From the NCBI GenBank assembly GCA_016179105.1, contig JACOSB010000160.1:164-64163 (forward strand): DNA of 64,000 nucleotides, read 5' to 3'. Origin of the DNA: Candidatus Acetothermia bacterium (GTDB lineage: Bacteria > Bipolaricaulota > Bipolaricaulia > RBG-16-55-9 > DRXL01). Positions 6,788 through 34,200 of the stretch are shown piece after piece. Below the pieces are notes generated by a model, which did no database searches, was not told where the DNA came from, and saw only the letters and a program-made list of their open reading frames with translations. Both the position numbers and the translations under genes were made by a program. Each line of letters opens with the position of its first letter. Positions within the stretch are counted from its first letter, which is position 1.

Positions 6788-8563
6788 ATGCACATAAGAG
6801 AAGCAATGAAGCTACTCGGATTGGTCGCAGCCTTGGTCGTGTTGATCTTGGTTGTGATACAGAGCGAACAGGCCTGGTTGGCGCAAGCCGACTGCACGAT
6901 CATAGTACAGCCGGGGCAGTCTATCCAAAAGGTGATTGACCAAGCTCAAGCGGGCGCGGTCGTCTGTCTGAGCCCAGGAACGTTCCAAGAGAATATTCAG
7001 ATCAAAAAGAGCCTGACGCTGCGGGGCGCGGGAAGAATGCAAGCGGTCATCAAGGGCAAAGTAGAAAAGGGTCAGCGCGAGCCGGGTCCGCCCGGGGTGC
7101 AGATGACTGAGCCCGTGGTTCGGATCGAGAGCGCTTCAGAGATCGAAGTGAACATCAAGGGCCTCACGATCGCGGAGGCCGAATTCTACGGGCCCCCCCC
7201 AGTGACTTGTGACTTTGTTCCTTGTTTTTACGCACTTCGTATCCCGCCTAGTATCTCGGTGGGAGGCCATGCGAAAGCGACAATCCGATCCTCCACCGTC
7301 TCCCGCAGCGGGAGCGGTCTAGCTGTAGGAAACTCGGCTCAGGTGAGCCTGATTGACTCCCAAGTCTCCGACAACAGCGGGAGCGGCATCAGTGTGACAG
7401 GCTCTTCCGGCGATGCGAAAGTGACGATCCAATCTTCCATAGTTTCGGGCAATGGGGTTGGCCTCGATGTGCAGGACTCGGCTAAGTTGGAGGTGAATGA
7501 CAGCCGCTTCTTGGACAACCGGCAGTGCGGAATCAGGGTTCTCTCAGCCGATGCCCGGATTTCGGGCACTCCCAACGAGATGCGGGATAACGGGGTCGAT
7601 CTTTGCGGCTTCGCCCCCGTGGCCCTCCGCCGGCCGCTCGTCCCCCAGACGACGCGCACTCAACTGACAGTCCCCCAGGATTTTGCCAGCCTGCAGGAGG
7701 CAGTGGATGCCCTGGCCCCGGGCGGGACGATCTTGGTTGGGCTAGGCATCTATGAAGTGGGGCTGACGATCTGGAAACCGCTGACGCTGTGGGGGGTGAG
7801 CCGGACAGAAACGACGCTGAAGGTACGGCCTGAGCGTGGGTTGGTCGTCTCGGTCCCGGCCGAGGTGCAGGTAGTTACGCTGCAAGGACTTGCAGTGTTG
7901 GGCGGTGGTTTGAACATCTACGGTTATGTCTATCTTCAGGACGTCCAAGTCTCCGGCAATAGGGGCAGTGGCCTCTTTGTGGGGGGATCGGCCCAGGTGA
8001 GCCTGACCGGCTCCCAAGTCTCCACCAACGTCGGGTCAGGCCTCTCTGTGGAGGGCTCGGCCCAGGTGAGCCTGATTTACTCCCAAGTCTCCACCAATGT
8101 CGGGTCAGGCCTCTCTGTGGGAGGATCTGCCCGGGTGAGTCTGAGTGGCTCCACAATCTTCGGCAACACACAAGGCCTCGTGATGGAGGACTCGGCCCGT
8201 GCAGAAGTACGTCAAAGCCTCATCATAGGCAACGGCACTAACCCCGAGATGCAGCTTGTCGACGATTGTCAAGCCGGCAACCCCCGCAGAAAGGCAGACA
8301 TAATGTGCGGCGGGATCGTGGTTGGTGGCACAGAAGCGCGACTGACGCTGATAGGTTCCATTATCCAAGGGAACGCCGACTGGGGCCTGGGGGCGGAGTT
8401 GAAGCAGTGCGGCGGCTCCGAAGACAAGTTCACCGGCAAGGTGGTCTTCGAGGGTACGAACACGATCGAGGGCAACAACAGATCGGGCAAACTCATTGGC
8501 AAGGGCAACCCCGGCAACCACCCGTTCAAGAACTTACCCGACGGGCAGGTGTGTCTGCCGTAG
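6788..8563 (+). CDS. Secreted right-handed parallel beta-helix repeat protein (PbH1 / NosD / pectate-lyase-like fold)
   Basis: RBS AGGAGAGATCGCA-ATG. Signal/TM segment MHIREAMKLLGLVAALVVLILVVI. There are many 22-23-aa rungs of the form GNSAQVSLIDSQVSDNSGSGISVTGSSG. The upstream in-frame extension to 6581 was rejected. Confidence 0.75.
   Translation: MHIREAMKLLGLVAALVVLILVVIQSEQAWLAQADCTIIVQPGQSIQKVIDQAQAGAVVCLSPGTFQENIQIKKSLTLRGAGRMQAVIKGKVEKGQREPGPPGVQMTEPVVRIESASEIEVNIKGLTIAEAEFYGPPPVTCDFVPCFYALRIPPSISVGGHAKATIRSSTVSRSGSGLAVGNSAQVSLIDSQVSDNSGSGISVTGSSGDAKVTIQSSIVSGNGVGLDVQDSAKLEVNDSRFLDNRQCGIRVLSADARISGTPNEMRDNGVDLCGFAPVALRRPLVPQTTRTQLTVPQDFASLQEAVDALAPGGTILVGLGIYEVGLTIWKPLTLWGVSRTETTLKVRPERGLVVSVPAEVQVVTLQGLAVLGGGLNIYGYVYLQDVQVSGNRGSGLFVGGSAQVSLTGSQVSTNVGSGLSVEGSAQVSLIYSQVSTNVGSGLSVGGSARVSLSGSTIFGNTQGLVMEDSARAEVRQSLIIGNGTNPEMQLVDDCQAGNPRRKADIMCGGIVVGGTEARLTLIGSIIQGNADWGLGAELKQCGGSEDKFTGKVVFEGTNTIEGNNRSGKLIGKGNPGNHPFKNLPDGQVCLP
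7922..8190 (+). repeat. Tandem 69-nt (23-aa) repeat, about 3.5 units, inside the beta-helix gene
   Basis: gcccaggtgagcctga...gtcgggtcaggcctctctgtgg recurs at 7991, 8060 and 8129 with over 85% identity. Confidence 0.8.
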
Positions 8564-8679
8564 GAGCTACAAAATATGGAGGGAGAAACGGTGCACTCGG
8601 GTGCCCCGACGGACTCATCCCCATGACGCGAATTGACAAGTTTGAGCAGAAACAGATAGACTTCGAAAGGAGGTCTTCG

Positions 8680-10479
8680 ATGCGTACCAAACTGTCACTC
8701 CTGGTTATCGCTCTGATTTTTTATTTGTTCAGTGCAGGGGCAGCACAACCGGCTCTTTCCCCTTGCCCGCCCGCTCCAGCGCGCACCTTATTGCCCGGCG
8801 GTAGCGGTGAAGGGCAACAGTCCACGTCATTTTTGCAGCTCACGATTCAGCAGAAAGCCAAGGGGCTTGGTCCCTGTCGCGTCGGCCAAGAGCTGACGCT
8901 GAACGCCGTCGTTGCCTCTCTCGGAGCGATTGACCCGGATCAAGTACAATTTCTCATCGACGGTGCCCCCTTTCGCAACAGGCGCTTCACCTCCAGAGGA
9001 CCAGTTTCCACGGTCGGCCCACAACTCTTGGGTATTCAAGACAGCTGGACCGCAACGCCTTCCGAAAACATCAGCCATGAGATCAGCGCTTGTTTGAGCC
9101 TAAGCCCAAACCCTCCTCCTCTGTGCAGCACTTCTACGATTGATGTGCTTCGCATTGAGCTAAGAGAGGGAGTGGACTTCGCTCCCGGCATACTCTTGGT
9201 CAAGTTCAAACCGGGCGTAAGCTCCGGGGCGATTCAAGAGACGATCCGCCGTCTCAACACAACTCAAATCAGCTTCATCGCGTTCATTGAAGTTTATGTT
9301 TTGAGAATCACAGATGCCCAATCAGTGCTGCAGAAAATAGACGCCTTTCGGCGTGACTCAAACGTCCAGTACGCAGAACCCGACGGTTATTGGTATGCCC
9401 AGCAACAAATACCCAATGACCCGCAATTTTCAAAACAATGGAACCTTCGCAATCTCCCGACAGAGCATCCCTGCACTCGCAACGACATCACCGACGTTTT
9501 GTGGAATACGTTCTCACCACCCTTTCTCGACTGCAATCAGAAGGGCAAAGAGAAAGCCGACATCAGAGCCATGGACTTATGGGGACAATTTTCTAATAAC
9601 CAATTTAGCCAGGCGGTCACTGCAGCCGTCCTCGACAGCGGCATCGCCATACACCCGGACTTGGAAGCAAACGTCATCCGCACAGAGTCCAAAATTTTTA
9701 TAGACCCAAAGCTCAACGCTCCTGAAGACCAAGACACCAATATTTATGACACTTATGGGCATGGAACGTTTGTCGCGAGCATCATGGCCGCGTTGGGGAA
9801 CAACGGTCTCGGTCTCACGGGAATACTTTTTAATACCAAAGCCAAAGTCTGGCCTCTCAAAGTGAGCAAGAGTGGAAAACTCTTGTGGACTGACTTCGCT
9901 AATGCGATCGCCTACGTGCTCACACAAAAGACCCCAGCGAACATTCGCGTGATCAATCTCAGCTATGGCGGCATGAGGTCTGAGAGCTTGAGTAATGCCC
10001 TGGATCGTGTGAAAGAAGCCGGTTTACTCTTCATCACTTCTGCGGGAAACTATAAGCAAGACCTCGATCAAAAACCCTTTTACCCGTGCAGTTACGAGCG
10101 CGAGAATAAGAACGAGAATATCCTCTGCGTCGCCGCTTCGGACGATAAAGATCAACTATGGAGCGAATCCAGTTTTGGAGCTAAATCTGTCGATTTGGTT
10201 GCTCCTGGAGTAGACATCTTGGGGCTAATTCCCGAGGGATTGTCCTTGCCCGCGGGACGAAAATCGGCAGATTCTTCTTCGATCTTCGTGGGCAGCGGGA
10301 CTTCCTTTGCGGCCCCCCATGTGACGGCCGTCGTCGCTAGTCTGTGGGCGCGTTGCCCCACGGCGAGCGCGACGGTCATCCGGCGTATCCTGCTCGATGG
10401 AGTGGAGAAGCTTCATTTGCAGGCGCAAGTCGCCAGCGGAGGCCGCCTGCGCTGGCCGGAGAAAGTGAGCTGTAACTAG
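8680..10479 (+). CDS. Secreted subtilisin-like serine protease (peptidase S8) with an I9-like propeptide
   Basis: RBS AGGAGG then ATG. Signal peptide MRTKLSLLVIALIFYLFSAGAA. Catalytic-triad motifs are AVLDSGI (Asp), HGTFVASIMAA (His) and GTSFAAPHVTAVVASL (Ser). The in-frame extension to 8266 was rejected. Confidence 0.85.
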   Translation: MRTKLSLLVIALIFYLFSAGAAQPALSPCPPAPARTLLPGGSGEGQQSTSFLQLTIQQKAKGLGPCRVGQELTLNAVVASLGAIDPDQVQFLIDGAPFRNRRFTSRGPVSTVGPQLLGIQDSWTATPSENISHEISACLSLSPNPPPLCSTSTIDVLRIELREGVDFAPGILLVKFKPGVSSGAIQETIRRLNTTQISFIAFIEVYVLRITDAQSVLQKIDAFRRDSNVQYAEPDGYWYAQQQIPNDPQFSKQWNLRNLPTEHPCTRNDITDVLWNTFSPPFLDCNQKGKEKADIRAMDLWGQFSNNQFSQAVTAAVLDSGIAIHPDLEANVIRTESKIFIDPKLNAPEDQDTNIYDTYGHGTFVASIMAALGNNGLGLTGILFNTKAKVWPLKVSKSGKLLWTDFANAIAYVLTQKTPANIRVINLSYGGMRSESLSNALDRVKEAGLLFITSAGNYKQDLDQKPFYPCSYERENKNENILCVAASDDKDQLWSESSFGAKSVDLVAPGVDILGLIPEGLSLPAGRKSADSSSIFVGSGTSFAAPHVTAVVASLWARCPTASATVIRRILLDGVEKLHLQAQVASGGRLRWPEKVSCN

Positions 10480-16828: not shown

Positions 16829-16974
16829 GGAGACTTTTCATCTTTCGCCTTGGAATCACGGAACGCCCTGAAAGACTACACAGAAAACGCGGAAGAAAGG
16901 CAAGCCGTTTTCCGTGTTTTCAGTGATGTGTTTTCGATTCAGAATCATGCGAACAAAAAGGAAGAAAAAACGGG

Positions 16975-17047
16975 CGGTCCCAACGGGATTTGAACCCGTG
17001 TTTACGCCTTGAGAGAGCGTCGTCCTAGGCCGCTAGACTATGGGACC
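16975..17047 (-). tRNA. tRNA-Glu (anticodon CUC)
   Basis: Cloverleaf: GGTCCCA|TA|GTCT..GGAC|G|ACGCT-CTCTCAA-GGCGT|AAAC|ACGGG-TTCAAAT-CCCGT|TGGGACC|G. U33 and A37 are present. CCA is not encoded. Confidence 0.7.
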
Positions 17048-17140
17048 GGACTGTTTTCAGCGAAAAGATGCTTTAATATAGCAAATGCAGCCCAGAGGGT
17101 CAAGGTGAATCGAGCCAGCAGTTCTTGTTTTTCGTAGCTG

Positions 17141-17167
17141 TTCTTGGCGCTCTTCGCGTCTTGGCGG
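17141..17167 (-). repeat. Family B-related repeat fragment (CCGCCAAGACGCGAAGAGCGCCAAGAA) upstream of the tRNA-Ser promoter
   Basis: Reverse complement matches the 45586-45620 variant GCCAAGGCACGAAGAGCGCCCAGAAAAATCT. Confidence 0.5.
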
Positions 17168-17168
17168 T

Positions 17169-17197
17169 TTGATGAGAGAGAACTCGACTGTTATAAT
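17169..17197 (+). promoter_or_regulatory. Sigma-70-type promoter for tRNA-Ser (TTGATG -17 nt- TATAAT)
   Basis: -35 at 17169-17174, 17-nt spacer, -10 TATAAT at 17192-17197. The tRNA starts 13 nt downstream. Confidence 0.6.
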
Positions 17198-17209
17198 CTC
17201 TTGCCATCG

Positions 17210-17297
17210 GGAGGGATGACCGAACGGTAAGGAACTGGTCTCGAAAACCAGCACGGCCCAAAAGGCCTTCCGGGTTCGAATCCCGGTCCCTCCGCCA
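17210..17297 (+). tRNA. tRNA-Ser (anticodon CGA), with CCA encoded
   Basis: GGAGGGA acceptor. Anticodon stem CTGGT/ACCAG with loop CTCGAAA. Long variable arm CACGGCCCAAAAGGCCTT. T-arm CCGGG-TTCGAAT-CCCGG. 3' GCCA. Confidence 0.85.
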
Positions 17298-17338
17298 AAC
17301 AAAAACATTCCACACCGTTTGAGCTAGCTTTTTTTTGG

Positions 17339-17367
17339 TTGACGCGCGCTCGTGAAATCGCTAAACT
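17339..17367 (+). promoter_or_regulatory. Sigma-70-type promoter for tRNA-Arg (TTGACG -17 nt- TAAACT)
   Basis: -35 at 17339-17344, -10 at 17362-17367. It is preceded by a T8 run after tRNA-Ser. Confidence 0.5.
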
Positions 17368-17379
17368 ACTCTCACACAT

Positions 17380-17456
17380 GCGCCCGTAGCTCAGCGGATT
17401 AGAGCGTTGGCCTGCGGAGCCAAAGGTCGGAGGTTCAATTCCTCCCGGGCGTACCA
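17380..17456 (+). tRNA. tRNA-Arg (anticodon reads GCG), with CCA encoded
   Basis: GCGCCCG acceptor. D-stem GCTC/GAGC. Anticodon stem TTGGC/GCCAA with loop CTGCGGA. T-arm GGAGG-TTCAATT-CCTCC. An encoded G34 for Arg is unusual in bacteria, where ACG is normal. Confidence 0.7.
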
Positions 17457-17557
17457 CAGATAGCATGGAGCACAGTTGCAAAGCCCTCAGTCTCTTTTCT
17501 TCTAGACACAGTCGCTTGACTTCATCCCCGTTCGCGCTAAAATGGTAGTCGATTGCT

Positions 17558-17959
17558 ATGCGTACGTTTTTCAATGCTGTCACCATCACACTGCTGATTG
17601 CATGCGTCAATATCCTTTCATTTTCGATTACGTGTTACTCCCCCATGTACGGCAGCGATGGCCACGAGCATACGTTCTTCCATCTCTTCGAGACCCACTC
17701 CGATGATCATTCCGAGACTCACTCTGATGCACACTCTAAGACTGATTCTGATGCAGACACCAACTCGCACCACTGCTCGCTCGATTCACATTCTTCGATG
17801 GCCATCATGCTGTCGGCCATGAGCTGCGATCTCTGCATCGGGCAAGCGTCCCTCGCGATTCATGCCCATCCCATCTCCGAGAAAATTCTCTCCGACCATA
17901 CGCTCTCCGTTGCCAGAGATTTTCTCCACCCTCCCACCGAACCTCCCGAACTCAGCTAA
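17558..17959 (+). CDS. Secreted histidine-rich protein with degenerate H-S-D/E repeats, a putative periplasmic metal (copper) binding protein
   Basis: Signal-like N-terminus. HEHTFFHLFETHSDDHSETHSDAHSKTDSDADTNSHHCSLDSHSS is encoded by degenerate ~15-nt repeats. It lies immediately upstream of the CopC genes. Confidence 0.55.
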   Translation: MRTFFNAVTITLLIACVNILSFSITCYSPMYGSDGHEHTFFHLFETHSDDHSETHSDAHSKTDSDADTNSHHCSLDSHSSMAIMLSAMSCDLCIGQASLAIHAHPISEKILSDHTLSVARDFLHPPTEPPELS

Positions 17960-18041
17960 GCTCCTACAGGCAGTCCGCTACGTCATCAAGTTGTGACGCT
18001 TTTTCGTTAGCTGTGTTAAACAACCGAAAGGAGCTTATCTC

Positions 18042-18431
18042 ATGTTCAAGCTGAGCAATCGCAACAAAGCACTCGCTATTTTCGCTGTCATCGGAGGCAT
18101 CGCACTGTGGATGGCCGTTCTCGTCTTCGCGCATCCGAAGGTCACAAGCTCGAACATCGCCCCCGGCGCCGTGCTCGCTGCGGCCGACGTGCCCGGAAGC
18201 ATCCAAGTGCAATTCAGCGAGGACATCGACAACAAGCGCAGTACAATCTACGTCTATAAGATGGGCCCAGACAATGTCGTCGACCTGGGTGATGTGAGAG
18301 TCAATCAAGACACGCTCTCGGTGAGCTTAAGGCCCTCTCTCAGCGCGGGCGTCTATCAAGTCCGCTGGATCGCGATCAGTCCTGATGACGGCGGCTACCG
18401 TGAGGGCACGATCAATTTCGCCATAAAGTAA
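18042..18431 (+). CDS. copC: CopC-domain periplasmic copper-binding protein
   Basis: AHPKVTSS..PG..L....P..IQVQFSEDID...YVYK........VRVNQDTLSVSL...LSAGVYQVRWIAISPDDGGYREGTINFAI is the CopC fold signature, N-terminal H included. Confidence 0.8.
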   Translation: MFKLSNRNKALAIFAVIGGIALWMAVLVFAHPKVTSSNIAPGAVLAAADVPGSIQVQFSEDIDNKRSTIYVYKMGPDNVVDLGDVRVNQDTLSVSLRPSLSAGVYQVRWIAISPDDGGYREGTINFAIK

Positions 18432-18491
18432 ACATCTATAGATGTCAAAGAGTGGGGATCAGAGAAAAATCTGGCCCTCACTCTAGTACAA

Positions 18492-18941
18492 TTGAGAGAA
18501 CTATTTCTGAAAGGAGCCAAGATGAAAAACTCTCGTTTCTTCTCGAAGAAAGCGTTTATCGTTCTAGGTACTCTCGTCGCTGTTTTGGCCATTGCTATCG
18601 CAGGGTTAGTGCAAGCGCATCCAAGTCTACGCGCTGCTGAATCGAGCCCCTCACCGGGTCAGATCTTGAGCGTTGCTCCCACGCAAGTCAAACTCTCCTT
18701 CAACGTAGAAGATCAGGGCTTGGTGACAGACCAGAGCTACGCCTGGGTTTACAAAGAAGAAGGATTACAAGTCGTTGCTCTTGGCAAGGTAGACTTAAGC
18801 AGCGCAGGTCGTAACGTGATGATCATGGCACTGCCAGCCAACTTGAGTCCGGGCATATATATCGTCAAATGGGTGGCCGTCTCTGTTGTCGACCGTGGCT
18901 TCAGTGAAGGCAGTTACAGTTTCGCTGTGACCGGCAAGTGA
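18492..18941 (+). CDS. copC: CopC-domain protein, second paralog
   Basis: AHPSLRAAESSPSPGQILSVAPTQVKLSFNVED...GIYIVKWVAVSVVDRGFSEGSYSFAV. Family A palindrome copy 3 follows at 18977. Confidence 0.75.
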   Translation: MRELFLKGAKMKNSRFFSKKAFIVLGTLVAVLAIAIAGLVQAHPSLRAAESSPSPGQILSVAPTQVKLSFNVEDQGLVTDQSYAWVYKEEGLQVVALGKVDLSSAGRNVMIMALPANLSPGIYIVKWVAVSVVDRGFSEGSYSFAVTGK

Positions 18942-18976
18942 TTGAAAATGCTTTTAACCGCTTAAAATACGATTTT

Positions 18977-19003
18977 GTAGGGGCGAGGTAACCTCGCCCC
19001 TAC
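18977..19003 (+). repeat. Palindromic element, family A copy 3 (perfect 13-bp palindrome GTAGGGGCGAGGT-A-ACCTCGCCCCTAC)
   Basis: Read directly. It sits between the copC2 stop and the copCD start. Confidence 0.8.
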
Positions 19004-19015
19004 AGGAAATTTCTA

Positions 19016-21097
19016 ATGAGCCAGCACAAAATCTTTTTCAGAATCAGTTTCGGATTGCTGCTTGCCGGGTTTCTTATCGTGAGTCTGGGAGCGAGTGCCT
19101 TCGCGCACGCGTACTTACAGAAGACCGACCCGCCGGCGGGCTCTACCGTCGCGACAGCTCCGGAGCATCTGCAATTTTATTTTAGTGAAGATGTCGATTC
19201 CAAATTCAGCCAACTGACGCTCTTTGACTCCGACGGCAAAAAACTTGCTGATCTCAACTTCAAACTCGCGCCGAATGACCCTTTGCATCTCGATGCTACT
19301 CTTCCTCACGTGAGTGACGGCACTTATACGATCGCGTGGCGCGTGATGTCCGCCGTCGACGGCCACACGACCAAAGGCACTTATCCTTTCCGCATCGGCA
19401 AAGAAAGTGCAAGCTGCCTCGATGCGCCTCCCGCGACGCCCGCAAAGACTGAGGAGACCCCAACTCCTTGGGCGCGCGTCTTCTTCCATTGGTTGAGCTT
19501 TTTCGCGATCATTGGACTCGCAGGAGCTTTTTTCTTCCAAGCCCTGGTCATCCAACCGAGTCTACAAAAAGCGGGTTTTCCGGCCGAGCACTGGGCGAGC
19601 GTCACCGTAACAAAGAGCCAGAGATTCTTGCTGATATGCTGGGTCCTCTTCATCCTCACAACCATTCTCGATCTCATCGCTCAAGCCATGAGCAACAGCG
19701 ACTCTTCGTTCAGCCAAGTCATGCAGAGTGCCGTGATGATGCAACTTTTATCGACACGTTTTGGGCTAATCTGGCTCGTGCGCATCGGGCTCGCGCTCCT
19801 GCTGGGCTTATTGATAATTCTGAAAATCCACAAGAGCCGCGCAGGGCTCTGGAGCTCGCTGGGGCTGAGCGCGCTCGTCTTGTTGAGCATTTCTCTATCG
19901 AGCCACAGCGCGGCGCTCAAGGACGGGACTGTCTTAGCTATCTTCGTCGACTGGGTGCATTTGCTGACGTCGGCGATCTGGATCGGCGGCCTGTTCCAAC
20001 TGATGTCCGTGGCTGTTCCGGCGCTACGCTTAATTCCCGAAACGAACCGATACAAACTGATATCGCAGATTGCACCGCGCTTTTCGAGTCTTGCTTTTGC
20101 CAGCGTGATCTTGCTCATCGCTACGGGCGTCTACAGCGCGCTTCGTCAAGTCTCGTCTTGGGAGGCGCTCTTCACGACAACTTACGGGCGCGCGATCGCG
20201 ATCAAACATGTTCTGCTTATCTTCACGATCGCCGTTGCTGCGATTCATTTCTTAAACATCGTGCCGCGCTTGTCGCGCATAGCCGATTCGATTACACAAG
20301 CTACGGCTGAACAAGCGAAGAGCTTGATCCGGCGTTTTCGCAGTTTGGTCAGCGTGGAAGCCGTCATGGTTGTCGCGGTGCTCTTCTTTGCGGGAATCTT
20401 GACGCTCGTCCCGACGGCCTCCCAACCTCAAGATGAGACAGCGTTAGCCCGCACGGGGCCGCTCACGTTCACGGGGCAATCTCAGGGGTTGACTATCATT
20501 CTCACGATGTGCTCGGACCAAGTGGGAGACAACGAGTTCGATGTCTTGGTCTCCGACCCTCAGAAGAATGCGCCCGTCGCCGATGCTCTACAGGTGCTTG
20601 TGGGCTTTAACTATCTCGGACAAGATTTGGGAGGGCTGCACGCCATCGCTGCGCTCAAGGGTAACGGTCATTATCGGACTCAAGGCGCTTTCATGAATTT
20701 AGCCGGAGACTGGGAAGCGACGGTCAGCGTGCGTCGCGCCGGGCAAGCTGAAGATGCCTCAGTAAAATTTTCTCTCAAAATTAAAGATAAGAACGGCCAG
20801 ACTCATGCGGAATCGAAGCCCCAATATGATGCAGCGATGATCGAAAAGGGGCAACTTTTGTACACGCAAAACTGCGCGGCGTGTCACGGTGACTCCGGCC
20901 GGGGCGATGGCCCGGCTGCCCCGACGCTCAAGTACAAGCCCGCGGATTTGGTCGCCCATCGTGGCCATCACACCGATCAAGATTTTCTCTGGGTTGTCCG
21001 TGATGGAACGGGCCTCACGATGCCGGGGTTTAAGGGCAAGGTGAGCGAGGAGGAGATTCGACAGATTATCGCGTATATTAGACAGTTGAAAGAATAA
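19016..21097 (+). CDS. Tripartite fusion: CopC domain, CopD copper-transport membrane domain and a C-terminal mono-heme cytochrome c domain
   Basis: N-terminus AHAYLQKTDPPAGSTV...YTIAWRVMSAVDGHTTKGTYPFRIG is CopC. The middle ~350 aa holds multiple TM helices of CopD type. C-terminus YTQNCAACHGDSGRGDGP...GLTMPGF has CxxCH plus a Met ligand, as in cytochrome c. Confidence 0.8.
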   Translation: MSQHKIFFRISFGLLLAGFLIVSLGASAFAHAYLQKTDPPAGSTVATAPEHLQFYFSEDVDSKFSQLTLFDSDGKKLADLNFKLAPNDPLHLDATLPHVSDGTYTIAWRVMSAVDGHTTKGTYPFRIGKESASCLDAPPATPAKTEETPTPWARVFFHWLSFFAIIGLAGAFFFQALVIQPSLQKAGFPAEHWASVTVTKSQRFLLICWVLFILTTILDLIAQAMSNSDSSFSQVMQSAVMMQLLSTRFGLIWLVRIGLALLLGLLIILKIHKSRAGLWSSLGLSALVLLSISLSSHSAALKDGTVLAIFVDWVHLLTSAIWIGGLFQLMSVAVPALRLIPETNRYKLISQIAPRFSSLAFASVILLIATGVYSALRQVSSWEALFTTTYGRAIAIKHVLLIFTIAVAAIHFLNIVPRLSRIADSITQATAEQAKSLIRRFRSLVSVEAVMVVAVLFFAGILTLVPTASQPQDETALARTGPLTFTGQSQGLTIILTMCSDQVGDNEFDVLVSDPQKNAPVADALQVLVGFNYLGQDLGGLHAIAALKGNGHYRTQGAFMNLAGDWEATVSVRRAGQAEDASVKFSLKIKDKNGQTHAESKPQYDAAMIEKGQLLYTQNCAACHGDSGRGDGPAAPTLKYKPADLVAHRGHHTDQDFLWVVRDGTGLTMPGFKGKVSEEEIRQIIAYIRQLKE

Positions 21098-21116
21098 TTC
21101 CGGGGAGAATCTCAAT

Positions 21117-21746
21117 ATGTCAAAAGAAAAAGCACAGAAAAAACAGAGTTCGAGCCCAAGCTCACGCGCCTGGCTCATCGGTGGCATCGTTGTAGCGATC
21201 GTAGCGGCCATCGCCATCGGAGCTTACATCTGGAAGACAAGCTCTGGGACAAGCTCAAGCCTAACGACCAATGGACCTGTCGAAAACCGGCCATTGCCTG
21301 ATCATGGAGACAAGAGCTTGCTCCAAGGGGTCGAATCGTTCCCCAACGAAGGACGCGATCACGTCTCATCTGCTTCTGAGCTTAACTATAAGACTGACCT
21401 ACCTACGTCGGGGGCTCATTTACCCAGCCCTGTGCCGGCGGGATTTTATAGCGAAAAAATTCAACCGGGGCTCTTGGTGCATAGTTTAGAGCACGGAGGG
21501 GTTGTCATCTATTATGATCCCGCGCGGCTCTCGAACGACGTCGAGAAAAGTTTGCGAGCTTTTGTCAAAGCGCACCTTGAGATGTGGGCGGGTGTCGTCG
21601 TCATGCCGAGCCCGGTACACTATGATGCTCCCTTTATTCTCACGGCCTGGACGAAGATGCTCAAGCTAGAAAATTATGATGCGCGCGTCGTGCAAGCTTT
21701 CTTGGCCGAGTACTTGGGGCGTGGGCCGGAGAACCCGGTGCGTTAA
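21117..21746 (+). CDS. DUF3105-domain membrane-anchored protein
   Basis: N-terminal TM segment (WLIGGIVVAIVAAIAIGAYIW) then ...HSLEHGGVVIYYDPA...TAWTKMLKLENYD, typical of DUF3105. Confidence 0.55.
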   Translation: MSKEKAQKKQSSSPSSRAWLIGGIVVAIVAAIAIGAYIWKTSSGTSSSLTTNGPVENRPLPDHGDKSLLQGVESFPNEGRDHVSSASELNYKTDLPTSGAHLPSPVPAGFYSEKIQPGLLVHSLEHGGVVIYYDPARLSNDVEKSLRAFVKAHLEMWAGVVVMPSPVHYDAPFILTAWTKMLKLENYDARVVQAFLAEYLGRGPENPVR

Positions 21747-23236
21747 GAGTCGGTGAGAGGTCTCTTCATAAACTCTGCAGGCCGGGGAAAAATCGAAGAT
21801 ATTTCCGACAATTCTGTTTTCAGCTGCGCTGCTACTTGCCTTGCTCGCTCCGCTAACTTCTCTCTCAGATAACCAGCTTCCATAGCCGCGTGCAGTTTGG
21901 CTTCGTCAATAATACGAACTTCTCCCTCCGGCTCGCGCGTCACGTCAATCTCCAAGTCGATATAACGGACGCGGTCGGGATAGATCTCGATCGGCGTGTT
22001 CACGTTCGCATAGATACCTTTGCAACGTTCATCGTTCGAATAATAGAAGGTGCGATACTCCCAACGGCCCTCGCAGAATTCTGTGAGCGCGAAATCTCCC
22101 GGAGCTTTGAGCGCGCTGAGCCCGTCGTAGCTTCCATTGCCTCGGATCTCGCGACGCAGCTGCACCGTCTTCTTCGCCGAATCGGCCGCCATTACCTTCC
22201 CGCGCCCCAAAATAATCGTCTCGCCCTCGGGCTTGACGTGTTCGATCAGCAGAGTCTCGCCGACTTCAGGGAATTCGACCATGCGCCCGTTGGAATGATC
22301 GGTGTTGTCACCGAGATACTGTTGGAGCCGTGCTTCGGCTCGATCCACTGTGCGAAAAGACCCGGCGGCTTTGTATTTGTGATGTCCCGGCAACGTCGGG
22401 ACGATCTCGCCACGAAGCTGATCCAAACGCTGCTTGGCGCTCCCGGGAAATTCAAACTGAGTCGTCGCTTCGAACCCGAGCAACAACCCGGGAATGCCTT
22501 CCTCGGGGTGGTCGTGCAAGTGTTCGGTGTGTGCGACCAGCCTCTCTAACTCTGCGATCAGTTCCGGCTCGTCACACTGATACGCGGCGGTGCGCCAGAT
22601 GACGCCCCAGCCTGGGGGCAAGAGTCGACGGCCCACGCGGAGCAAGCGCTCGCGCTCCGCCAACTCTTCTATTTCTCGACTGACTCGAATATTCCCTTGA
22701 GAAGAGAGGACGGCGCGTTGGCCGGGCAGGCTGATCTCCATCGTCACGATGAGATGTTTTCCGGCCGGAGCAAGCTCGCACACTTGGACCAAGATCGCTT
22801 CTCCCAGCCGCAACGGACGAGAGGCCTTGCTGTGAGGCAAGAACCCTACATCGCATCCCAAATCCATCAAATATCCCGACGGACGCAACGATTGAACGAG
22901 CCCCCAGTAGACCGAGTGCAAAGGAGCTTTCACCGGGCGCGTCATCACATCGGGCAAATCGTCTTGGAACGTTGTGGCTAATTTTTCGAGTGCTTCTTTT
23001 GGCCCAGCGGCGATGATGCCCTGACCGCACTCACTGTCTTTTAGCTCAAGGTCGAACGGCTCATACAGGGGCCCCAACTGAAACCGTTCTTGGATTTTGC
23101 GAGAGGGCTGGACGATGGAAAATCCCCGACGATGAAGCAGGTGGGTGAGGGCGGTTGAGTAGATTCCACGGACACGCACTCGGTTCATAAGTGCCCTAGA
23201 GTAACACATCGCGCGTAAAGAGACAACTGGTCCCAT
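21743..23236 (-). CDS. FAU-1-like RNase E/G-family RNA-binding protein with a C-terminal DUF402 (FomD-like) domain, an archaeal-type architecture
   Basis: N-terminus MNRVRVRGIYSTALTHLLHRRGFSIVQPS matches the archaeal FAU-1 start. C-terminus FYYSNDERCKGIYANVNTPIEIYPDRVRYIDLEIDVTREPEGEVRIIDE is DUF402. Confidence 0.6.
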   Translation of the reverse strand: MGPVVSLRAMCYSRALMNRVRVRGIYSTALTHLLHRRGFSIVQPSRKIQERFQLGPLYEPFDLELKDSECGQGIIAAGPKEALEKLATTFQDDLPDVMTRPVKAPLHSVYWGLVQSLRPSGYLMDLGCDVGFLPHSKASRPLRLGEAILVQVCELAPAGKHLIVTMEISLPGQRAVLSSQGNIRVSREIEELAERERLLRVGRRLLPPGWGVIWRTAAYQCDEPELIAELERLVAHTEHLHDHPEEGIPGLLLGFEATTQFEFPGSAKQRLDQLRGEIVPTLPGHHKYKAAGSFRTVDRAEARLQQYLGDNTDHSNGRMVEFPEVGETLLIEHVKPEGETIILGRGKVMAADSAKKTVQLRREIRGNGSYDGLSALKAPGDFALTEFCEGRWEYRTFYYSNDERCKGIYANVNTPIEIYPDRVRYIDLEIDVTREPEGEVRIIDEAKLHAAMEAGYLREKLAERARQVAAQLKTELSEISSIFPRPAEFMKRPLTDS

Positions 23237-23356: not shown

Positions 23357-24136
23357 CTAAATCTCATATCGTTCAACGATCTTTTTCTCGCCCGTGCCGT
23401 CGCCGATGATCTCGACGTGAATCTCAAAATACTCTGCGATGCCTGAATTTTTGAGCTTGGGTTTGAGCAGATTATCGACCTGAAAAATGCCCGCCGAGTT
23501 GGCCATCTCGATCTCGATGCAGACCGGCTTTTTCTCACCGGGTTTCAATTTCACGTTCGCGATCGCGAGCGCCGAGACGGCGTGAATCGTCGCTGTGCCC
23601 GCTTTGAACGGGATGCGCGCGCGGCCCTCTTCCATGTCGAGCGCGTCGGCAATTTTCAGCACGCCGGCTTCGACGGTCATGGGCGGTATATCGGTGTCGT
23701 GCGCGTAGATGGCATGAAGGACTTCCGCCATCATGATCGCTTTCTCACGTTCTTGATAAATTCCCTCGAGCACGCCAGGAAGCATATCGAGCGCGATCGA
23801 GACCGAGAAGGGTTCGTGATGAATGCGATGCACGATATGCCCAATGTCGTGAAAGCACGCGGCGAGCACGACGATCACTTCGGCATCGTCTTTGCTCATC
23901 TGATGGTCCTTCTCGACGCTGGTTTGGATGCCCTTCTCCATGAGCATGCGCAGAATTTTTAGGGCGATGTTGCTCACGATGCGAATGTGCACCGGCCCGT
24001 GATCGTTGATGCCCAGGCGGTTGATCGCGTTCACATTGCAGCAGTACCAAAAGGTGTTGAGCTTTACGCTCTCGTCGATGCGCTTCACGATCGCCGCGAG
24101 TTTTTCGTTTTGTTTGACGGGAACATTCAACGGCAT
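23357..24136 (-). CDS. HD-domain metal-dependent phosphohydrolase
   Basis: H..H ... CFHDIGHIVHRIHHE ... D motifs of the HD superfamily. It sits 12 nt downstream of the NMNAT gene in the same operon. Confidence 0.7.
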   Translation of the reverse strand: MPLNVPVKQNEKLAAIVKRIDESVKLNTFWYCCNVNAINRLGINDHGPVHIRIVSNIALKILRMLMEKGIQTSVEKDHQMSKDDAEVIVVLAACFHDIGHIVHRIHHEPFSVSIALDMLPGVLEGIYQEREKAIMMAEVLHAIYAHDTDIPPMTVEAGVLKIADALDMEEGRARIPFKAGTATIHAVSALAIANVKLKPGEKKPVCIEIEMANSAGIFQVDNLLKPKLKNSGIAEYFEIHVEIIGDGTGEKKIVERYEI

Positions 24137-24148
24137 AGCATGAACTCC

Positions 24149-24682
24149 TTAGGGTTGCTTGTCGGTCTTGGCGATCTGGCGCAGGCGCTCGATCCCGTCG
24201 ATCTCGTCCAATACTGCGGCGACGGTCGTGGGCACGAATTTTTTCCATTCCTCGCCTTGGAGCATCAGCTCGCGAATTTTCGTTCCTTCGTAACGGTCGC
24301 GTTGGACGAAGGGCAAAGGTCTTACTTCAAATCCCGCTTCAGAAAAGAGTTCTTGCACCAGCGTATTGTTCGAGTAAACGATCTCAAACGGAGGAGTCAG
24401 CGAACGGATGTGCGCCACATAGAGCGAGTTTCTTTCAATGTCTTCGATGGGCAAAACATAGGTGGTCATCTTGGTTCCGGCGAGCGCTTTCGTGATCATC
24501 ATGATGCGTTCGCCGGCCGTGAACGGGTCTCTCAATGTGTGACTCCACTGAGCCGAGCCGACGGCGATCACCAGTTCGTCTACGTCGTCGCTCTGCACGA
24601 TATGGTCGATGAGCGCTTGATGGCCGTTGTGATAGGGCTGAAAGCGCCCAAGAAAGAGCGCGCGACAGACGTTGGTGCTCAC
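24149..24682 (-). CDS. nadM: Archaeal-type nicotinamide-nucleotide adenylyltransferase (NadM family)
   Basis: LFLGRFQPYHNGH (the (H/T)xGH nucleotidyltransferase motif in its archaeal GRFQPFHKGH form), AVGSAQ.SHT..PFTAGER and a C-terminal IERLRQIAKTD. Confidence 0.85.
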   Translation of the reverse strand: MSTNVCRALFLGRFQPYHNGHQALIDHIVQSDDVDELVIAVGSAQWSHTLRDPFTAGERIMMITKALAGTKMTTYVLPIEDIERNSLYVAHIRSLTPPFEIVYSNNTLVQELFSEAGFEVRPLPFVQRDRYEGTKIRELMLQGEEWKKFVPTTVAAVLDEIDGIERLRQIAKTDKQP

Positions 24683-24933
24683 GCGCGGGCACCCCCGGCG
24701 AGCGCTTGGCGGATGCGTTCTTTGATGAGATCGGGTTTGGGCAAAACGCCTTCCATCGCGAAAATTTTCTGGTCATTCAAAGATACATCGAAAACGCCCT
24801 CGTGCCCCGGCAGCAGTGTGAGCGAGTCGATCTGCTCAGGATGTTCTTCGAGCAAAGCCCGAACGAGCTCCAGGGCGCGGGGCAAATACATGCACTCAAC
24901 ACAGTATTCGATCGTGATGCATGCCCGTTTCAT
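24679..24933 (-). CDS. Rdx/SelW/SelT-family thioredoxin-fold protein (CxxC variant)
   Basis: 84 aa with ITIEYCVECMYL near the N-terminus, the Rdx CxxU/CxxC position. It is translationally coupled to nadM (ATGA overlap). Confidence 0.55.
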   Translation of the reverse strand: MKRACITIEYCVECMYLPRALELVRALLEEHPEQIDSLTLLPGHEGVFDVSLNDQKIFAMEGVLPKPDLIKERIRQALAGGARA

Positions 24934-25060
24934 ATGCGGCTCATTCTAGCACTCGCTGCACTGGGGTACAACTGAGTGTAGGCGCAGTTCGCGAACCGCC
25001 TCCGCGACGGTGGCCGAACTTCCTGTGCAGGGTTATAATTCACATCAAGGAGGAATCGAA

Positions 25061-25588
25061 ATGCTTAAATTCGGAGATGTCGCGCCAGAGTTCAACTTGC
25101 CCGGTGTCGAAGGAAAAAATCATAAACTTGCGGACCACAAAAGCAAGAAAGCCGTCGCTGTCATTTTTAGTTGCAACCATTGTCCCTACGTGAAAGCGTT
25201 CGAAGATCGGATGATCGCGCTCGCACGCGACTATGCTCCCAAGAGCGTGCAATTCTTGCTCATCAACGCCAACGATCCCGTAAAATACCCGAGCGACAGC
25301 TTTGAGCAGATGGCTGTCCACGCCAAAGAAAAGAACTACCCATTCCCGTACCTGCACGATGCGTCTCAACAAATCGCGAAAGCTTATGGCGCTCAGCGCA
25401 CACCCGAAGTTTTTTTGTTTGATAACAGCTTCAAGCTGCGCTATCGCGGGACGATTGACGACAGCGTAGACGACCCAAATAAAGTGACCAAGCGCTATCT
25501 GAAAGACGCGCTCGACGCCGTCGTGGCGGGCAGAGAGCCGGCAACGAAAGAGACAGCGCCGGTGGGTTGCACGATCAAATGGAAGTGA
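25061..25588 (+). CDS. Thioredoxin-fold thiol-disulfide oxidoreductase (redoxin/AhpC-TSA family)
   Basis: RBS AAGGAGG then ATG. ...AVAVIFSCNHCPYV has a CxxC motif. A TATAAT -10 lies at 25034-25039. Confidence 0.8.
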   Translation: MLKFGDVAPEFNLPGVEGKNHKLADHKSKKAVAVIFSCNHCPYVKAFEDRMIALARDYAPKSVQFLLINANDPVKYPSDSFEQMAVHAKEKNYPFPYLHDASQQIAKAYGAQRTPEVFLFDNSFKLRYRGTIDDSVDDPNKVTKRYLKDALDAVVAGREPATKETAPVGCTIKWK

Positions 25589-28479: not shown

Positions 28480-29319
28480 ATGTCATTCTCACAGTTGTTG
28501 TTGGTCGGGGCGATTGCTGGGTTCACGGTCTATTTGGGGTTGCCGGTCGCGGCCTTGCGTCGCACGGGGCTACGCACGCGGGGCGTACTCAACGGCATTG
28601 CCACGGGCATTCTCGTTTATTTAATGATTGAAATCCTCAAAAGCCCCTTGGGTTTTGGTGAAGATGCTCTGGAACATGCCATCGGGAAATCAAGCACGGA
28701 CTTGCTCTTGCTATTTTCGGTATTAGTCGGCGGTGTGACCCTGGGTTTAGTAGGCATTCCGATCTTAGAACGCTGGATGTTGCGCCAGTGGGCTCGGTCG
28801 CCGAGGCCGCTAGGGATCGTCGCCCAGACGGTGACGGCTCCCTCACGGGAACGCGCAAAAGAACTCCAGCCCTTCGTGCTCGCTCTGATGATCTCGGCGG
28901 GCATCGGTCTGCACAACTTCAGCGAGGGGCTGGCTATCGGGCAGCAGGCCACGCTCGGACATATGTCGCTCGCCTGGGCTCTGATAATCGGCTTTGCCCT
29001 TCACAACATCACCGAAGGGTTTGGCATAGCTGCTCCGTTGGCTGGAACGCGCCCTTCGCTCGGCTTTCTCGCACTGGCGGGTTTGATCGCGGGTGGGCCG
29101 ACCTTCTTAGGCACGGTCGTCGGAGCGAGCTGGCAATCCCCATTAGCTTCGATTGCGTTTCTCGCACTGGCGGGCGGGGCCTTGCTCTACGTCATCTCCG
29201 AGCTGCTGCGCCTGGGCCACGCCATGCTCGCCAAAGTCCCCTTCATGCTGAGCCTATCGTTGGGATTTTTTATCGGTTATTTTACGGAATTGGTGCTCGA
29301 GCGCGTACTTGGGGGCTGA
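28480..29319 (+). CDS. ZIP-family divalent metal transporter (ZupT-like)
   Basis: 8 TM segments. GLHNFSEGLAIG and ALHNITEGFGIAAPL are the ZIP signature motifs. Confidence 0.85.
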   Translation: MSFSQLLLVGAIAGFTVYLGLPVAALRRTGLRTRGVLNGIATGILVYLMIEILKSPLGFGEDALEHAIGKSSTDLLLLFSVLVGGVTLGLVGIPILERWMLRQWARSPRPLGIVAQTVTAPSRERAKELQPFVLALMISAGIGLHNFSEGLAIGQQATLGHMSLAWALIIGFALHNITEGFGIAAPLAGTRPSLGFLALAGLIAGGPTFLGTVVGASWQSPLASIAFLALAGGALLYVISELLRLGHAMLAKVPFMLSLSLGFFIGYFTELVLERVLGG

Positions 29320-31266: not shown

Positions 31267-34200
31267 ATGGCTGACCAATTTGAGAATCCTGACTCACATT
31301 CAAACTCTGATGAGCTGACAGCTCTACGACAGCAGGCCGAGCAATACGCAGCACAATTGCAAATCATCAATAGCATTCAACAAGGGCTTGCAAGCAAACT
31401 GGATATACAAGCCATTTATGATCTGGTTGGCGACAAGGTCTGCGAGATCTTCGATGCCCACGTGGTTCAAATTCTCTCATACGATCCGGCAGCGAATCTC
31501 ATGCATTACCCGTATTGTAATGAAATGGGCGACCGACATTCACACGACCCACGTCTGCCCGGCGGCTTTTCAGGCCACATACTCCAGACGCGCCAACCAC
31601 TCATGATCAACCAGAACCTGGTGGCGCGTTCAGCGGAACTCGGGAAAACCGTACCGTTATCCGGAGACTGGCCTAAATCTTATCTGGGGGTTCCTTTGCT
31701 CGTGGGTGATGAAGTTCGCGGTGTTCTCACTCTCCAAATCTTAGACCGCGAGAACGGCTTCAACGAATCTGACCTGCGCCTGCTTCAGACGCTCGCCAGT
31801 AGCATGAGCATGGCGCTCGAAAACGCGCGTCTCTTTGATGAAGTGCAAAATCGAAATGATGAGATCACTGATGCGTTAGAGCGAGAAACTGCAACGAGCG
31901 ATATTCTCAAAGTGATCGCCAACTCGCCCACCTACATTCAGCCTGTGCTCGATGTGATCGCTGAGCATTCGGCACGGTTATGTGCATCGGACGACGCTGT
32001 CATCGTGCTGGTGGAAGACAACTTTTTGAGGGTGTCCGCCCATTACGGCAGTATCCCCATCACACAAGTGGGTGAAGGGATTCCGTTGGATAAAGAGACT
32101 GTCGTCGGGCGAGCGATCCTGGAGGGTGGAACCTTTCAAACGATCCATGGCCAGAACGAGGCCGCACCCGACTATCCGGCCGGCGACGCAAACGCAAAAA
32201 AATTCGGCTATCGCATGACGTTCTCGACCCCGCTGATGCGGCAAGGCAAGGCAATCGGCGGCATCACCATTCGCCACATCGAACCAAAGCTACTGAGCGA
32301 TAAACAAGTCGAACTGGTCAAGACCTTTGCCGATCAAGCGGCCATTGCTGTCGAGAATGTGCGGCTCTTCAACGAGACCAAAGAAGCACTCGAACAACAG
32401 ACCGCTACGAGCGAAGTGCTCCGTGCCCTGAGTAGCTCTCAAACGGACTTGAAGTCTTTGTTGGAAGTCATTGCCGTGAACGCGGCTAAGGTCTGTGGCG
32501 CCGATGATGCTCACATCTACCGCGTTGAGGGCAACATGCTCAAAGAATGGACACACCGCGGGCCAATTCCAGGGTTAGAGGCGGGCGAATCCTTACCGCT
32601 CAACCGCAAGTCGTTGACGGGCCGCGCGATCGTGGATCGGCAAACTATCCATATCCACGATGCGGCTGCAGAATTGAACGAGGCCGAGTATCCGATCAGT
32701 GCCGCTCTTCAGCGACGATGGGGCACTCGGACGGTGCTATCTATTCCATTGCTCCGCGATGGAGAGCCGATCGGGGGCATTGCCATTCGCCGCAAAGTGG
32801 TGCAACCGTTTACGGAGAAGCAGATTGAGTTGCTCAAATCCTTCGCCGATCAGGCTGTGATTGCGATTGAGAATGTGCGTCTTTTTGATGAGACTCAGCG
32901 TCTGCTCAAAGACACTCAACAACACGCCGCCGAGCTCGCCATTATCAACAGCGTGCAAGAAGGGTTGGCGTCTAAGCTAGATTTCGAGGCAATCATTGAT
33001 CTCGTGGGTGACAAGATTCGTGAAATATTCGATGCGCAGAGCGTGGCCATTGGCAGGTACGATCACGTGAATGGTCTGGTCAACTATAGTTATGTGGTCC
33101 AAAAAGGACACCGAGTGCAATGGAGTCCGTCGCCTTTTGCGGGTATGAGCCATCATATGATTAACACTCGACGGACATTGGTCATCAATGAAAATGTTGC
33201 TCAACGAATGAAAGAAATTGGTGCCATCTTCCCAGATGAGTTTGATCTGCCGCGCTCTACAGTGTATGTACCGCTGCTTGTGGGAGAAACGATCACGGGT
33301 GTGATTAATATCGCTAATCTGGATCGCGAGCACGCCTTTAGCGAATCCGATGTGCGCCTGCTCCAAACGCTCGCCAACAGCATGAGCGTGGCGCTCGAAA
33401 ACGCGAGGCTCTTTAATGAGACTCAACAACGCAACGCCGAGCTTGCCATCCTCAACAGCGTGAGCGAAGCCATGTCGAAGACGCTCGATGTCAAGACCGT
33501 GACGAAGATCGTGGGCGACAAGGTGCAAAGTATCTTTGCCTCAGAAGCCGTGAGCATCCGCTTATATGATCCCGCCACCAACCTCATTCAGCGCGCCTAT
33601 GATTATGACCGCGGTTATGAAGACCTGACTGATACCTCGTTTCCCATGGGCCAAGGGCTGACCTCGAAAATCATCCTTTCCGGCAAGCCGCTCATGTTTG
33701 GCACAGAACAGGAATCATACAGCGCTGGCTCACTGAATGTGCCTTCCCAGAAGGGCGACGAAGCGACGCAATCCTATCTTGGCGTTCCCATTATCGTCAA
33801 TGATAAAGTGATAGGCACCGTTTCCATTCAAAGTTATAAACAACACGCCTATAACGAAAATCACTTGCGCCTCCTGCAAACGCTCTCGTCCAACATGGGC
33901 GTCGCCATCCAGAATGCACGTCTCTTTGAAGCCGAGAAGCAGCGCGCCGCTGAACTTGCGATCATCAACAGTGTGCAAGCAGGACTCGCGTCAAAACTCG
34001 ATATGCAAGCGATTTACGATTTGGTGGGCGACAAGATTCGCGAGATCTTCGACGCACAGGTAGTAACCATTCTCTCTTACGACCACACCAGCAATCTCTT
34101 GCACTTTCGCTACTCGATCGAAAAAGGCGAACGGCAAACCGCTGAACCTTCACCGCTCGGCAAAGGATTTGCCTCCCATATTTTTAGGACACGCGAGCCG

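Follow-up and report, generated by a model that had tools for sequence, protein, structure and literature searches.

A 64-kb stretch of DNA from Candidatus Acetothermia bacterium (contig JACOSB010000160.1; hereafter the window) carries a cluster of five genes on the plus strand, the fourth of which (19016–21097, +) encodes a 693-amino acid protein made up of a signal peptide, a CopC domain, a CopD domain with eight transmembrane helices, a YtkA-like domain and a cytochrome c domain, as judged from Pfam and NCBIfam matches and an AlphaFold2 (AF2) model. We show here, by sequence comparison and structure prediction, that this fusion has the predicted make-up of a YcnJ-type CopC–CopD–YtkA protein with all the residues known to matter for uptake, plus a predicted periplasmic haem domain of the CytC552 type. 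It is a common variant of a known transporter family that is undescribed in the searchable literature. The reading that we favour, with roughly even confidence, is that the region is a five-gene operon for copper acquisition or trafficking, whose YcnJ-type transporter has built-in copper–haem electron transfer, probably from Cu(II) to Cu(I). Bacterial copper import is far less well understood than export, with CopC binding Cu(II) and the cytosolic sensors and chaperones handling Cu(I), and the main value of the fusion is as a natural clue to, and an experimental handle on, the redox step of that import.

Architecture and distribution of the fusion protein

An earlier note on this DNA had described five open reading frames (ORFs) in the region and a tripartite CopC–CopD–cytochrome c fusion as the product of the fourth. 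All five ORFs lie on the plus strand where they had been placed, and the three domain assignments are upheld by profile matches: Pfam locates CopC at residues 31–127 (2.6e-21), CopD at 351–462 (1.5e-20) and Cytochrome_CBB3 and Cytochrom_C at 608–692 (1.4e-13 and 2.1e-11, respectively), and the NCBIfam CopD model spans residues 153–463 (1e-30). The three named domains are present but the modules number four, a YtkA-like sandwich at residues 483–590 having been missed. That the protein might be an annotation artefact, in which separate genes are joined by a sequencing or assembly frameshift, is refuted and its probability is negligible. The gene is one uninterrupted ORF, as the note had held, orthologues with 91, 65 and 58% identity encode the same single-ORF fusion, and identical architecture is found in independent assemblies, in 65 species genomes and in 144 of 150 protein clusters (see below). 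The 693-amino acid protein MBI1744765.1, which NCBI labels only as ‘copper resistance protein CopC’, falls in the 90%-identity cluster of the fusion and shares a contig with MBI1744758.1, to which the DnaN of the window is identical; judged by its accession offset from DnaN, it is taken to be the product of the fusion gene itself.

Hydropathy analysis of the fusion points to a signal peptide that can be cleaved off (…AFA|HA…), followed by eight transmembrane segments that obey the positive-inside rule. On this topology the CopC domain, the region following the eighth segment and the C-terminus are all predicted to be outside the membrane. The presence of a BamA/Omp85 gene in the window indicates that the organism is diderm and that ‘outside’ is therefore periplasmic, in agreement with the periplasmic haem domain that the topology check was expected to confirm. 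An AF2 model (55 homologues; predicted local distance difference test score 85.2, predicted template modelling score 0.70) consists, in order, of a CopC beta-sandwich, eight long helices, an eight-strand beta-sandwich at residues 483–590 and a helical C-terminal domain.

Each of the first three modules can be compared with known proteins. The CopC domain (residues 31–127; 19106–19396, +) has Foldseek template modelling scores of 0.87–0.89 to 5ICU and 6NFQ, and its alignment with the solved CopC proteins 6TPB and 5ICU takes in both H1 and the D-x-H motif. Its Cu(II) histidine brace is complete, comprising His31, which is the mature N-terminus after the AFA cleavage site, and Asp115-Gly-His117, and these brace residues are invariant in 15 fusions. 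In the CopD membrane domain (residues 152–465; 19469–20410, +), both hydropathy and the AF2 model give eight transmembrane helices, and two histidines, H297 and H315, are invariant in 55 aligned homologues. They align exactly with H135 and H154 of Escherichia coli YebZ, where the H135A mutation lowers copper uptake and H154A abolishes it (PMC11923076). The third module (residues 483–590; 20462–20785, +) gives no Pfam match when scanned alone but is a beta-sandwich in the AF2 model. It matches residues 467–565 of the Candidatus Leptofilum fusion with a phmmer E value of 6e-17, a span that holds a Pfam YtkA match (474–556, 3.3e-8), and several homologues carry precomputed YtkA matches (PF13115). 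From the predicted fold and this transitive homology we infer that the middle module is YtkA-like and therefore that the fusion has the architecture of YcnJ with a haem domain added.

The haem domain itself (residues 606–692; 20831–21091, +) is a mono-haem class I cytochrome c of the CytC552 type by Pfam and by its match in the PDB. It has the single CxxCH motif (C620-A-A-C623-H624), the distal axial methionine (M669) and, as predicted, the extracytoplasmic location of that class, and C620, C623, H624 and M669 are invariant in the fusion alignment. The best PDB match is CytC552 from Thioalkalivibrio paradoxus (7O9U/9VR0; E = 3e-17, and 39–40% identity by Foldseek), with a TMt of 0.72 against 9VR0. 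With the numbering verified against the paper describing it, CytC552 residues C55, C58, H59 and M103 map to C620, C623, H624 and M669, and three further residues, His83, His87 and Asp89, correspond to H648, H652 and D654 of the fusion. Amongst 71 fusions, H648 and H652 are each conserved in 69 and D654 in 67, and equivalents of the two histidines are retained in 17 of the 18 Nitrospira-type CopD–cytochrome c proteins that could be aligned across the region.

What is known of CytC552 gives these residues a possible meaning. The tri-copper enzyme thiocyanate dehydrogenase passes electrons to CytC552, which has an unusually exposed haem and a midpoint potential (Em) of about +160 mV, and in which surface His83 has been proposed as the last relay from a copper ion to the haem 7-propionate (PMC9456337). 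The thiocyanate dehydrogenase gene cluster includes copCD (PMC5744179), and a crystal complex of CopC with flavocytochrome c is available from the same organism (PDB 5N1T). On sequence grounds, we assign the haem domain to a copper-linked cytochrome subfamily marked by the extra His-His-Asp motif. Electron transfer between Cu(II) and Cu(I) by the fusion is plausible, with support from the homology of this domain to a cytochrome that serves a copper enzyme.

How widespread is this arrangement? A profile search of 1.84 billion representative proteins was used to collect the best 150 matches, all with E < 1e-160; 144 of these representative clusters have CopC, CopD and a single CxxCH, and another three are versions truncated at the N-terminus. 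A scan of GTDB species genomes, built on a seq­uence alignment of seven members (one of 15 was too divergent for the scan), returned 368 relatives, and the complete fusion is encoded in one ORF in 65 of the best 80 loci, which were examined for architecture. Almost all of these best loci are from Chloroflexota (Anaerolineae, Promineifilaceae, Ardenticatenaceae, Dehalococcoidia, Thermomicrobiales and Chloroflexia), and none is more than 36% identical to the fusion in the window, whose own lineage is therefore missing from the GTDB species representatives. The architecture is retained across phyla at 28–35% identity, and the more distant fusions have a two-helix hairpin inserted ahead of the haem domain, which leaves the sidedness of that domain unchanged. 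The fusion had been called unusual, which is fair in relation to characterised proteins but not to the databases, and with 144 full and three truncated examples in the best 150 clusters and 65 in the best 80 species loci, the idea that it is rare or unique can be rejected. No description of a CopCD–cytochrome c fusion was found in the searchable literature, the 2016 survey of the CopC family (Lawton et al.) lying outside its coverage.

A second family, in Nitrospira, combines CopD, two transmembrane helices, a cytochrome c and a cysteine-free thioredoxin-fold domain, with a CopC gene overlapping its start. The link between CopD and haem thus arose at least twice, once separately in Nitrospira. 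This bears on the reading in which the haem domain is an ordinary respiratory cytochrome c, merely tethered to the membrane by CopCD and functionally unconnected with copper. Membrane-tethered cytochromes c are common, and the domain is dispensable in a close relative described below. Set against this are the persistence of the partnership across phyla at 28–35% identity, its independent origin in Nitrospira and the place of the haem domain in a specific copper-linked subfamily with the extra His-His-Asp motif, and we regard incidental anchoring as very improbable.

Partner proteins encoded in the cluster

Two standalone CopC proteins precede the fusion, as had been proposed. CopC-a (129 amino acids; 18042–18431, +) matches Pfam CopC at 1e-11 and aligns with its orthologues and with the CopC domain of the fusion. 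CopC-b (8e-9) is encoded by a 149-codon ORF at 18492–18941 (+), with a probable start at the ATG at 18522 that would give a protein of 139 amino acids and matches orthologues 139–140 amino acids long. Their signal peptides end at VFA|H and VQA|H, respectively, so that both keep His1, and both keep the Asp of the brace, but the second brace histidine is replaced by glycine (D-G-G in CopC-a, D-R-G in CopC-b). The same change is present in all CopC-a and CopC-b orthologues from Acetothermia and Fraserbacteria. Neither protein thus has a complete Cu(II) brace, a loss that the earlier note did not record, nor does alignment reveal a Met-rich Cu(I) site in either. YcnI has a mono-histidine brace and exchanges Cu(II) with YcnJ (PMC12362106); on this analogy, the standalone CopC proteins may serve as lower-affinity capture or hand-off proteins.

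The first gene (17558–17959, +) encodes a 133-amino acid protein without a Pfam or NCBIfam family. It is an orphan, for which 5.8 billion proteins yield only five clusters, each belonging to this clade. Its gene heads the cluster in every related locus seen, and the Candidatus Fraserbacteria cluster is headed by a similar, very divergent protein. A transmembrane segment at residues 8–26 is followed by an acidic loop predicted to lie outside, and the invariant set comprises H36, H38, H42, H71, C90-x-x-C93 and a PPxEPPExS C-terminus. The protein had been proposed to be a secreted Cu/Zn buffer built from His-Ser-Asp repeats. A stretch rich in these residues is indeed present, but the protein is membrane-anchored and the repeat is its variable part, the invariant residues being the His/Cys set. 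The stretch differs in length by insertions and deletions between orthologues and is of low complexity at the protein level; Tandem Repeats Finder detected no DNA tandem repeat in the gene.

The last gene (21117–21746, +) encodes a 209-amino acid DUF3105 protein (PF11303; 1.3e-27, 96.8 bits against a cutoff of 25) with an N-terminal transmembrane anchor and an extracytoplasmic alpha/beta domain in which H82, H101, H122, E125 and H126 are invariant. The suggestion that it belongs to the same operon is well supported: it begins 19 nt past the fusion gene, is kept in all four related loci of the Acetothermia clade and recurs close to the fusion at about 20 loci from Chloroflexota, mostly as a tandem pair. 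Foldseek comparison of the DUF3105 model with the PDB gave nothing significant, and essentially no literature on the family was found. A copper-binding role is plausible from the conserved residues and gene association, and an uncharacterised family with five invariant His/Glu residues, found in Chloroflexota, Bipolaricaulota and haloarchaea, is now tied to copper handling. Identity as a copper chaperone of the Sco/thioredoxin fold was considered separately and rejected, the protein being without the Cys motif (CxxxC plus a His site).

Haloarchaeal DUF3105 proteins (P0277, P0285, P0305, P0321, P0328 and others) have an additional N-terminal cytoplasmic segment resembling a zinc ribbon (C-x2-C…H-x3-H) before the transmembrane anchor, which hints at a link across the membrane between the outside metal site and a cytoplasmic module.

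What else accompanies the fusion was surveyed at 66 loci by clustering every ORF lying no more than 4 kb from it. The most frequent neighbour is a protein of about 200 amino acids (56 of 66 loci), followed by a DUF4399-like His-rich lipoprotein (23), DUF3105 (19), CopA ATPases (9) and a histidine kinase (8). In Candidatus Leptofilum, a gene for a CopA-type ATPase is followed by two for DUF3105, two for small secreted proteins and then that for the fusion. That copper-homeostasis genes, namely those for CopA ATPase, DUF3105, His-rich lipoproteins and N-terminal-histidine proteins, make up the recurrent neighbours counts in favour of the copper-acquisition reading. The Leptofilum example of the ~200-amino acid neighbour (L019 4676–5275) has a signal peptide, a mature N-terminal histidine, a C-terminal transmembrane anchor and a weak YtkA-like Pfam match; its layout is that of Bacillus YcnI, although homology to DUF1775 is undetectable. 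On a Nitrospira contig (L007 4686–6525), three tandem, paralogous-looking ORFs of about 195 amino acids without a Pfam match lie directly 5′ of the genes for CopC and CopD–cytochrome c, with two ferritin-like genes further upstream.

The same survey is pertinent to a role in cuproenzyme assembly, in which the cytochrome c would dock on, or exchange electrons with, a haem–copper oxidase or other periplasmic copper enzyme and the YtkA-like module would load CuA/CuB, as in Bacillus CtaK and the YtkA domain of YcnJ. In YcnJ, the YtkA domain has a part in assembling the CuA site of cytochrome c oxidase (PMC13344008). A CuA domain naturally binds cytochrome c, and in the fusion the haem module comes next to the YtkA-like one. 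Genes for oxidases, Sco, CtaG and multicopper oxidases do not recur within 4 kb of the fusion at the 66 loci, however, and the window ORFs that were scanned include none for an oxidase, Sco, CtaG or multicopper oxidase, nor for any further CxxCH protein or copper enzyme. The H648/H652/D654 motif, moreover, recurs in a cytochrome whose partner copper enzyme is not an oxidase. We therefore consider an assembly role distinctly unlikely.

Copper and electron transfer by the fusion

The closest characterised system is B. subtilis YcnJ, with which the fusion shares the order of CopC, eight-helix CopD and, by predicted fold and transitive homology, YtkA-like domains, the N-terminal Cu(II) brace and the CopD histidine pair, and whose gene is likewise preceded by genes for extracytoplasmic proteins with a mature N-terminal histidine. 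Unlike the fusion, YcnJ lacks a haem domain, and the most recent study states that its system is without a known reductase (PMC13344008). The partners also differ, being YcnI (DUF1775) and the repressor YcnK in B. subtilis, and two brace-defective CopC proteins, the His/Cys orphan and DUF3105, with no adjacent regulator, in the window; the YcnI (DUF1775) and YcnK families are absent amongst the cluster genes and neighbours scanned. In the E. coli YobA–YebZ–YebY (AZY) and Pseudomonas CopC/CopD systems, CopC and CopD also act as a unit but are separate proteins without a YtkA or haem module. YebY (DUF2511) has no counterpart in the operon described here, and Pseudomonas CopC differs from the CopC modules in the window in having an extra Met-rich Cu(I) site and a multicopper oxidase in its operon.

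On the cytochrome side, T. paradoxus CytC552 is ~40% identical to residues 596–692 of the fusion, with which it shares the CxxCH, the axial Met and the His83/His87/Asp89 motif, and it too is the partner of a copper centre and is encoded near copCD. It is, by contrast, soluble and free-standing, has His-rich termini that are disordered, and is known as the acceptor for thiocyanate dehydrogenase rather than as part of a transporter. The Nitrospira proteins annotated as ‘CopD family / c-type cytochrome’ (671–673 amino acids) combine CopD with a cytochrome c of the same subfamily, have a CopC gene directly upstream and carry a thioredoxin-fold module after the haem module, as the DUF3105 gene follows the fusion gene in the window. 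They differ in that CopC is unfused, the YtkA-like module is missing, the thioredoxin fold (AhpC/TSA-like) is fused and Asp654 is replaced by Ala. Redox change of copper is coupled to its trafficking across or alongside a membrane by Rhodobacter CcoG, by the multicopper oxidases CueO and PcoA and by eukaryotic Fre1 with Ctr1, but these are unrelated proteins with other cofactors (Fe–S clusters, copper, and haem b with flavin, respectively) and none is fused to a transporter.

In the copper-acquisition reading, periplasmic Cu(II) would first be captured by N-terminal-histidine proteins, that is, by the two non-canonical CopC proteins and perhaps with the help of the small His/Cys protein and DUF3105. 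Copper would then be handed to the CopC brace of the transporter and offered to H297 and H315 at the outer mouth of CopD, where the tethered haem domain could exchange one electron with copper bound at the CopC/CopD interface via surface H648, the equivalent of CytC552 His83. The likeliest direction would be from Cu(II) to Cu(I), freeing the copper from the Cu(II)-specific brace and making it transportable. Reduction is favoured because the CopC modules are all of the Cu(II) type, the CopD proteins tested to date are importers and no reductase for this step is yet known to the field.

The opposite direction of electron flow underlies a serious rival, in which the haem domain oxidises periplasmic Cu(I), for example that exported by CopA, and the resulting Cu(II), which is less toxic, is sequestered by the Cu(II)-specific CopC modules. 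The haem domain would then take the role of the multicopper oxidase PcoA/CopA in classical cop/pco detoxification operons. What makes this serious is that the CytC552 homologue accepts electrons from a copper centre and that a CopA-type P1B ATPase heads the cluster in Candidatus Leptofilum and at eight other loci; the absence of a multicopper oxidase gene from the cluster, and CopC modules that are all of the Cu(II) type only, lacking a Met-rich Cu(I) site, also fit. Two-histidine CopD proteins, on the other hand, are importers by experiment in both E. coli and B. subtilis, the cluster in the window has no CopA ATPase and a periplasmic copper sink would have no need of a conserved eight-helix channel. 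On balance we think detoxification unlikely, and return to copper acquisition with built-in reduction as the reading to be weighed.

Several observations tell against that reading. The directions of copper transport and electron flow in the fusion are both inferred, and CytC552 takes electrons from copper, opposite to the direction proposed, its Em of about +160 mV fitting either. Amongst the window ORFs scanned, some small ORFs being outside the scan, there are no cytochrome-maturation genes or electron donor and no CsoR/CueR-type regulator, a search for which had been suggested. Acetothermia are usually described as anaerobic acetogens, so that client enzymes for copper are not evident. A close relative (P0004, 61% identity) has the same five-gene operon with a CopCD protein that ends after the YtkA-like domain and lacks the haem domain, which is therefore not essential to the core mechanism. 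CopCD in the Candidatus Fraserbacteria locus is likewise without a haem domain and, taken together, these two proteins point to an accessory module with a history of repeated gain or loss; the haem module would accordingly be an optional add-on to the core transporter.

A relative with a haem-less CopCD has a gene for a FixO-like di-haem cytochrome c about 7 kb downstream of CopCD (L005 15506–15740), and its product could be a stand-alone substitute electron partner.

A bolder form of the proposal is that the fusions are self-contained cupric reductase-importers, in which the tethered haem reduces brace-held Cu(II) and the Cu(I) enters CopD, and that DUF3105 is a new histidine-based copper hand-off protein with a thioredoxin fold. 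We put this forward tentatively, as possible rather than probable. Were it true, the fusion would be the first metal importer in bacteria to carry its own redox cofactor, and the missing reduction step of the whole CopCD/YcnJ family would have been identified. A large natural family in which the transporter is fused to a cytochrome c akin to the partner of a copper enzyme is in any case a ‘Rosetta stone’ hint that CopCD function includes a one-electron step. The fusion is also a compact, testable construct for which natural controls exist, in the shape of the haem-less close relatives and of the Nitrospira proteins with their different domain order.

Genomic setting of the cluster

The four gaps between the five genes are, in order, 82, 60, 74 and 19 nt. 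A promoter-like site (TTGACT-16-TAAAAT; 17516–17543, +) lies directly 5′ of the first gene, although this comes from a consensus scan only (10/12 matches), which is weak evidence, and the implied leader is very short. Between the genes for CopC-b and the fusion is a GC-rich hairpin of 16 bp (18973–19007, +), the 3′ arm of which overlaps the AGGA Shine–Dalgarno sequence of the fusion gene; the 83-nt intergenic stretch that contains it has a predicted folding energy of −31 kcal/mol. Equivalent hairpins are found at three related loci (L001 7926–8001, with two compensatory pair changes; L005 6915–7001; L010 6348–6420) but not at L003, where the gap is 12 nt. To judge from its position and conservation, the hairpin may be an intra-operon attenuator or stability element that sets the ratio of CopC to transporter.

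Genes for tRNA-Ser and tRNA-Arg lie 5′ of the cluster on the same strand, with that for tRNA-Glu upstream on the opposite strand. The 5′ flank of the five-gene block differs in each relative, comprising these three tRNA genes in the window (16972–17456), a phage-integrase fragment in L003 (2103–2657), a peptidase M15 gene in L001 (5456–6193) and fatty-acid synthesis genes in L005 (4844–5092). Such variability may stem from a tRNA site that is prone to rearrangement or mobility. On the 3′ side, the gene following that for DUF3105 is on the opposite strand and convergent with it, and a gene for an RNase E/G–DUF402 protein is retained in every relative. Three archaeal-looking genes adjoin the operon here (21743–23236, −; 23357–24136, −; 24149–24682, −). 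They encode a FAU-1-like RNase E/G and DUF402 protein, an HD-domain protein and what we take, from reading its sequence, to be an archaeal-type NMN adenylyltransferase. Pus10 is also present in a relative (L005 10924–12027), the genome being otherwise bacterial (DnaN, LspA, BamA).

Less than 8 kb 3′ of the operon are genes for an Rdx (SelW-like) redox protein (24679–24933, −), an AhpC/TSA-redoxin with a CxxC-type motif, CNHCP (25010–25588, +), and a ZIP-family metal transporter (28480–29319, +), with no tie to the operon established for any of the three. Further along, an ORF at 31267–39909 (+) encodes a 2416-amino acid hybrid histidine kinase with ten GAF domains, one PAS domain and two receiver domains, followed on its 3′ side by an Hpt protein and then by a response regulator fused to an adenylate/guanylate cyclase. 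Near the start of the window, two ORFs (775–3849, +; 6195–6641, +) share a near-identical signal sequence, MKFI(K/Q)(Q/K)N(P/A)GLLRS(A/V)RSWG…; the larger encodes a 1024-amino acid surface protein with Laminin_G_3, GEVED and DUF11 repeats, and a subtilase gene (8266–10479) is located nearby.

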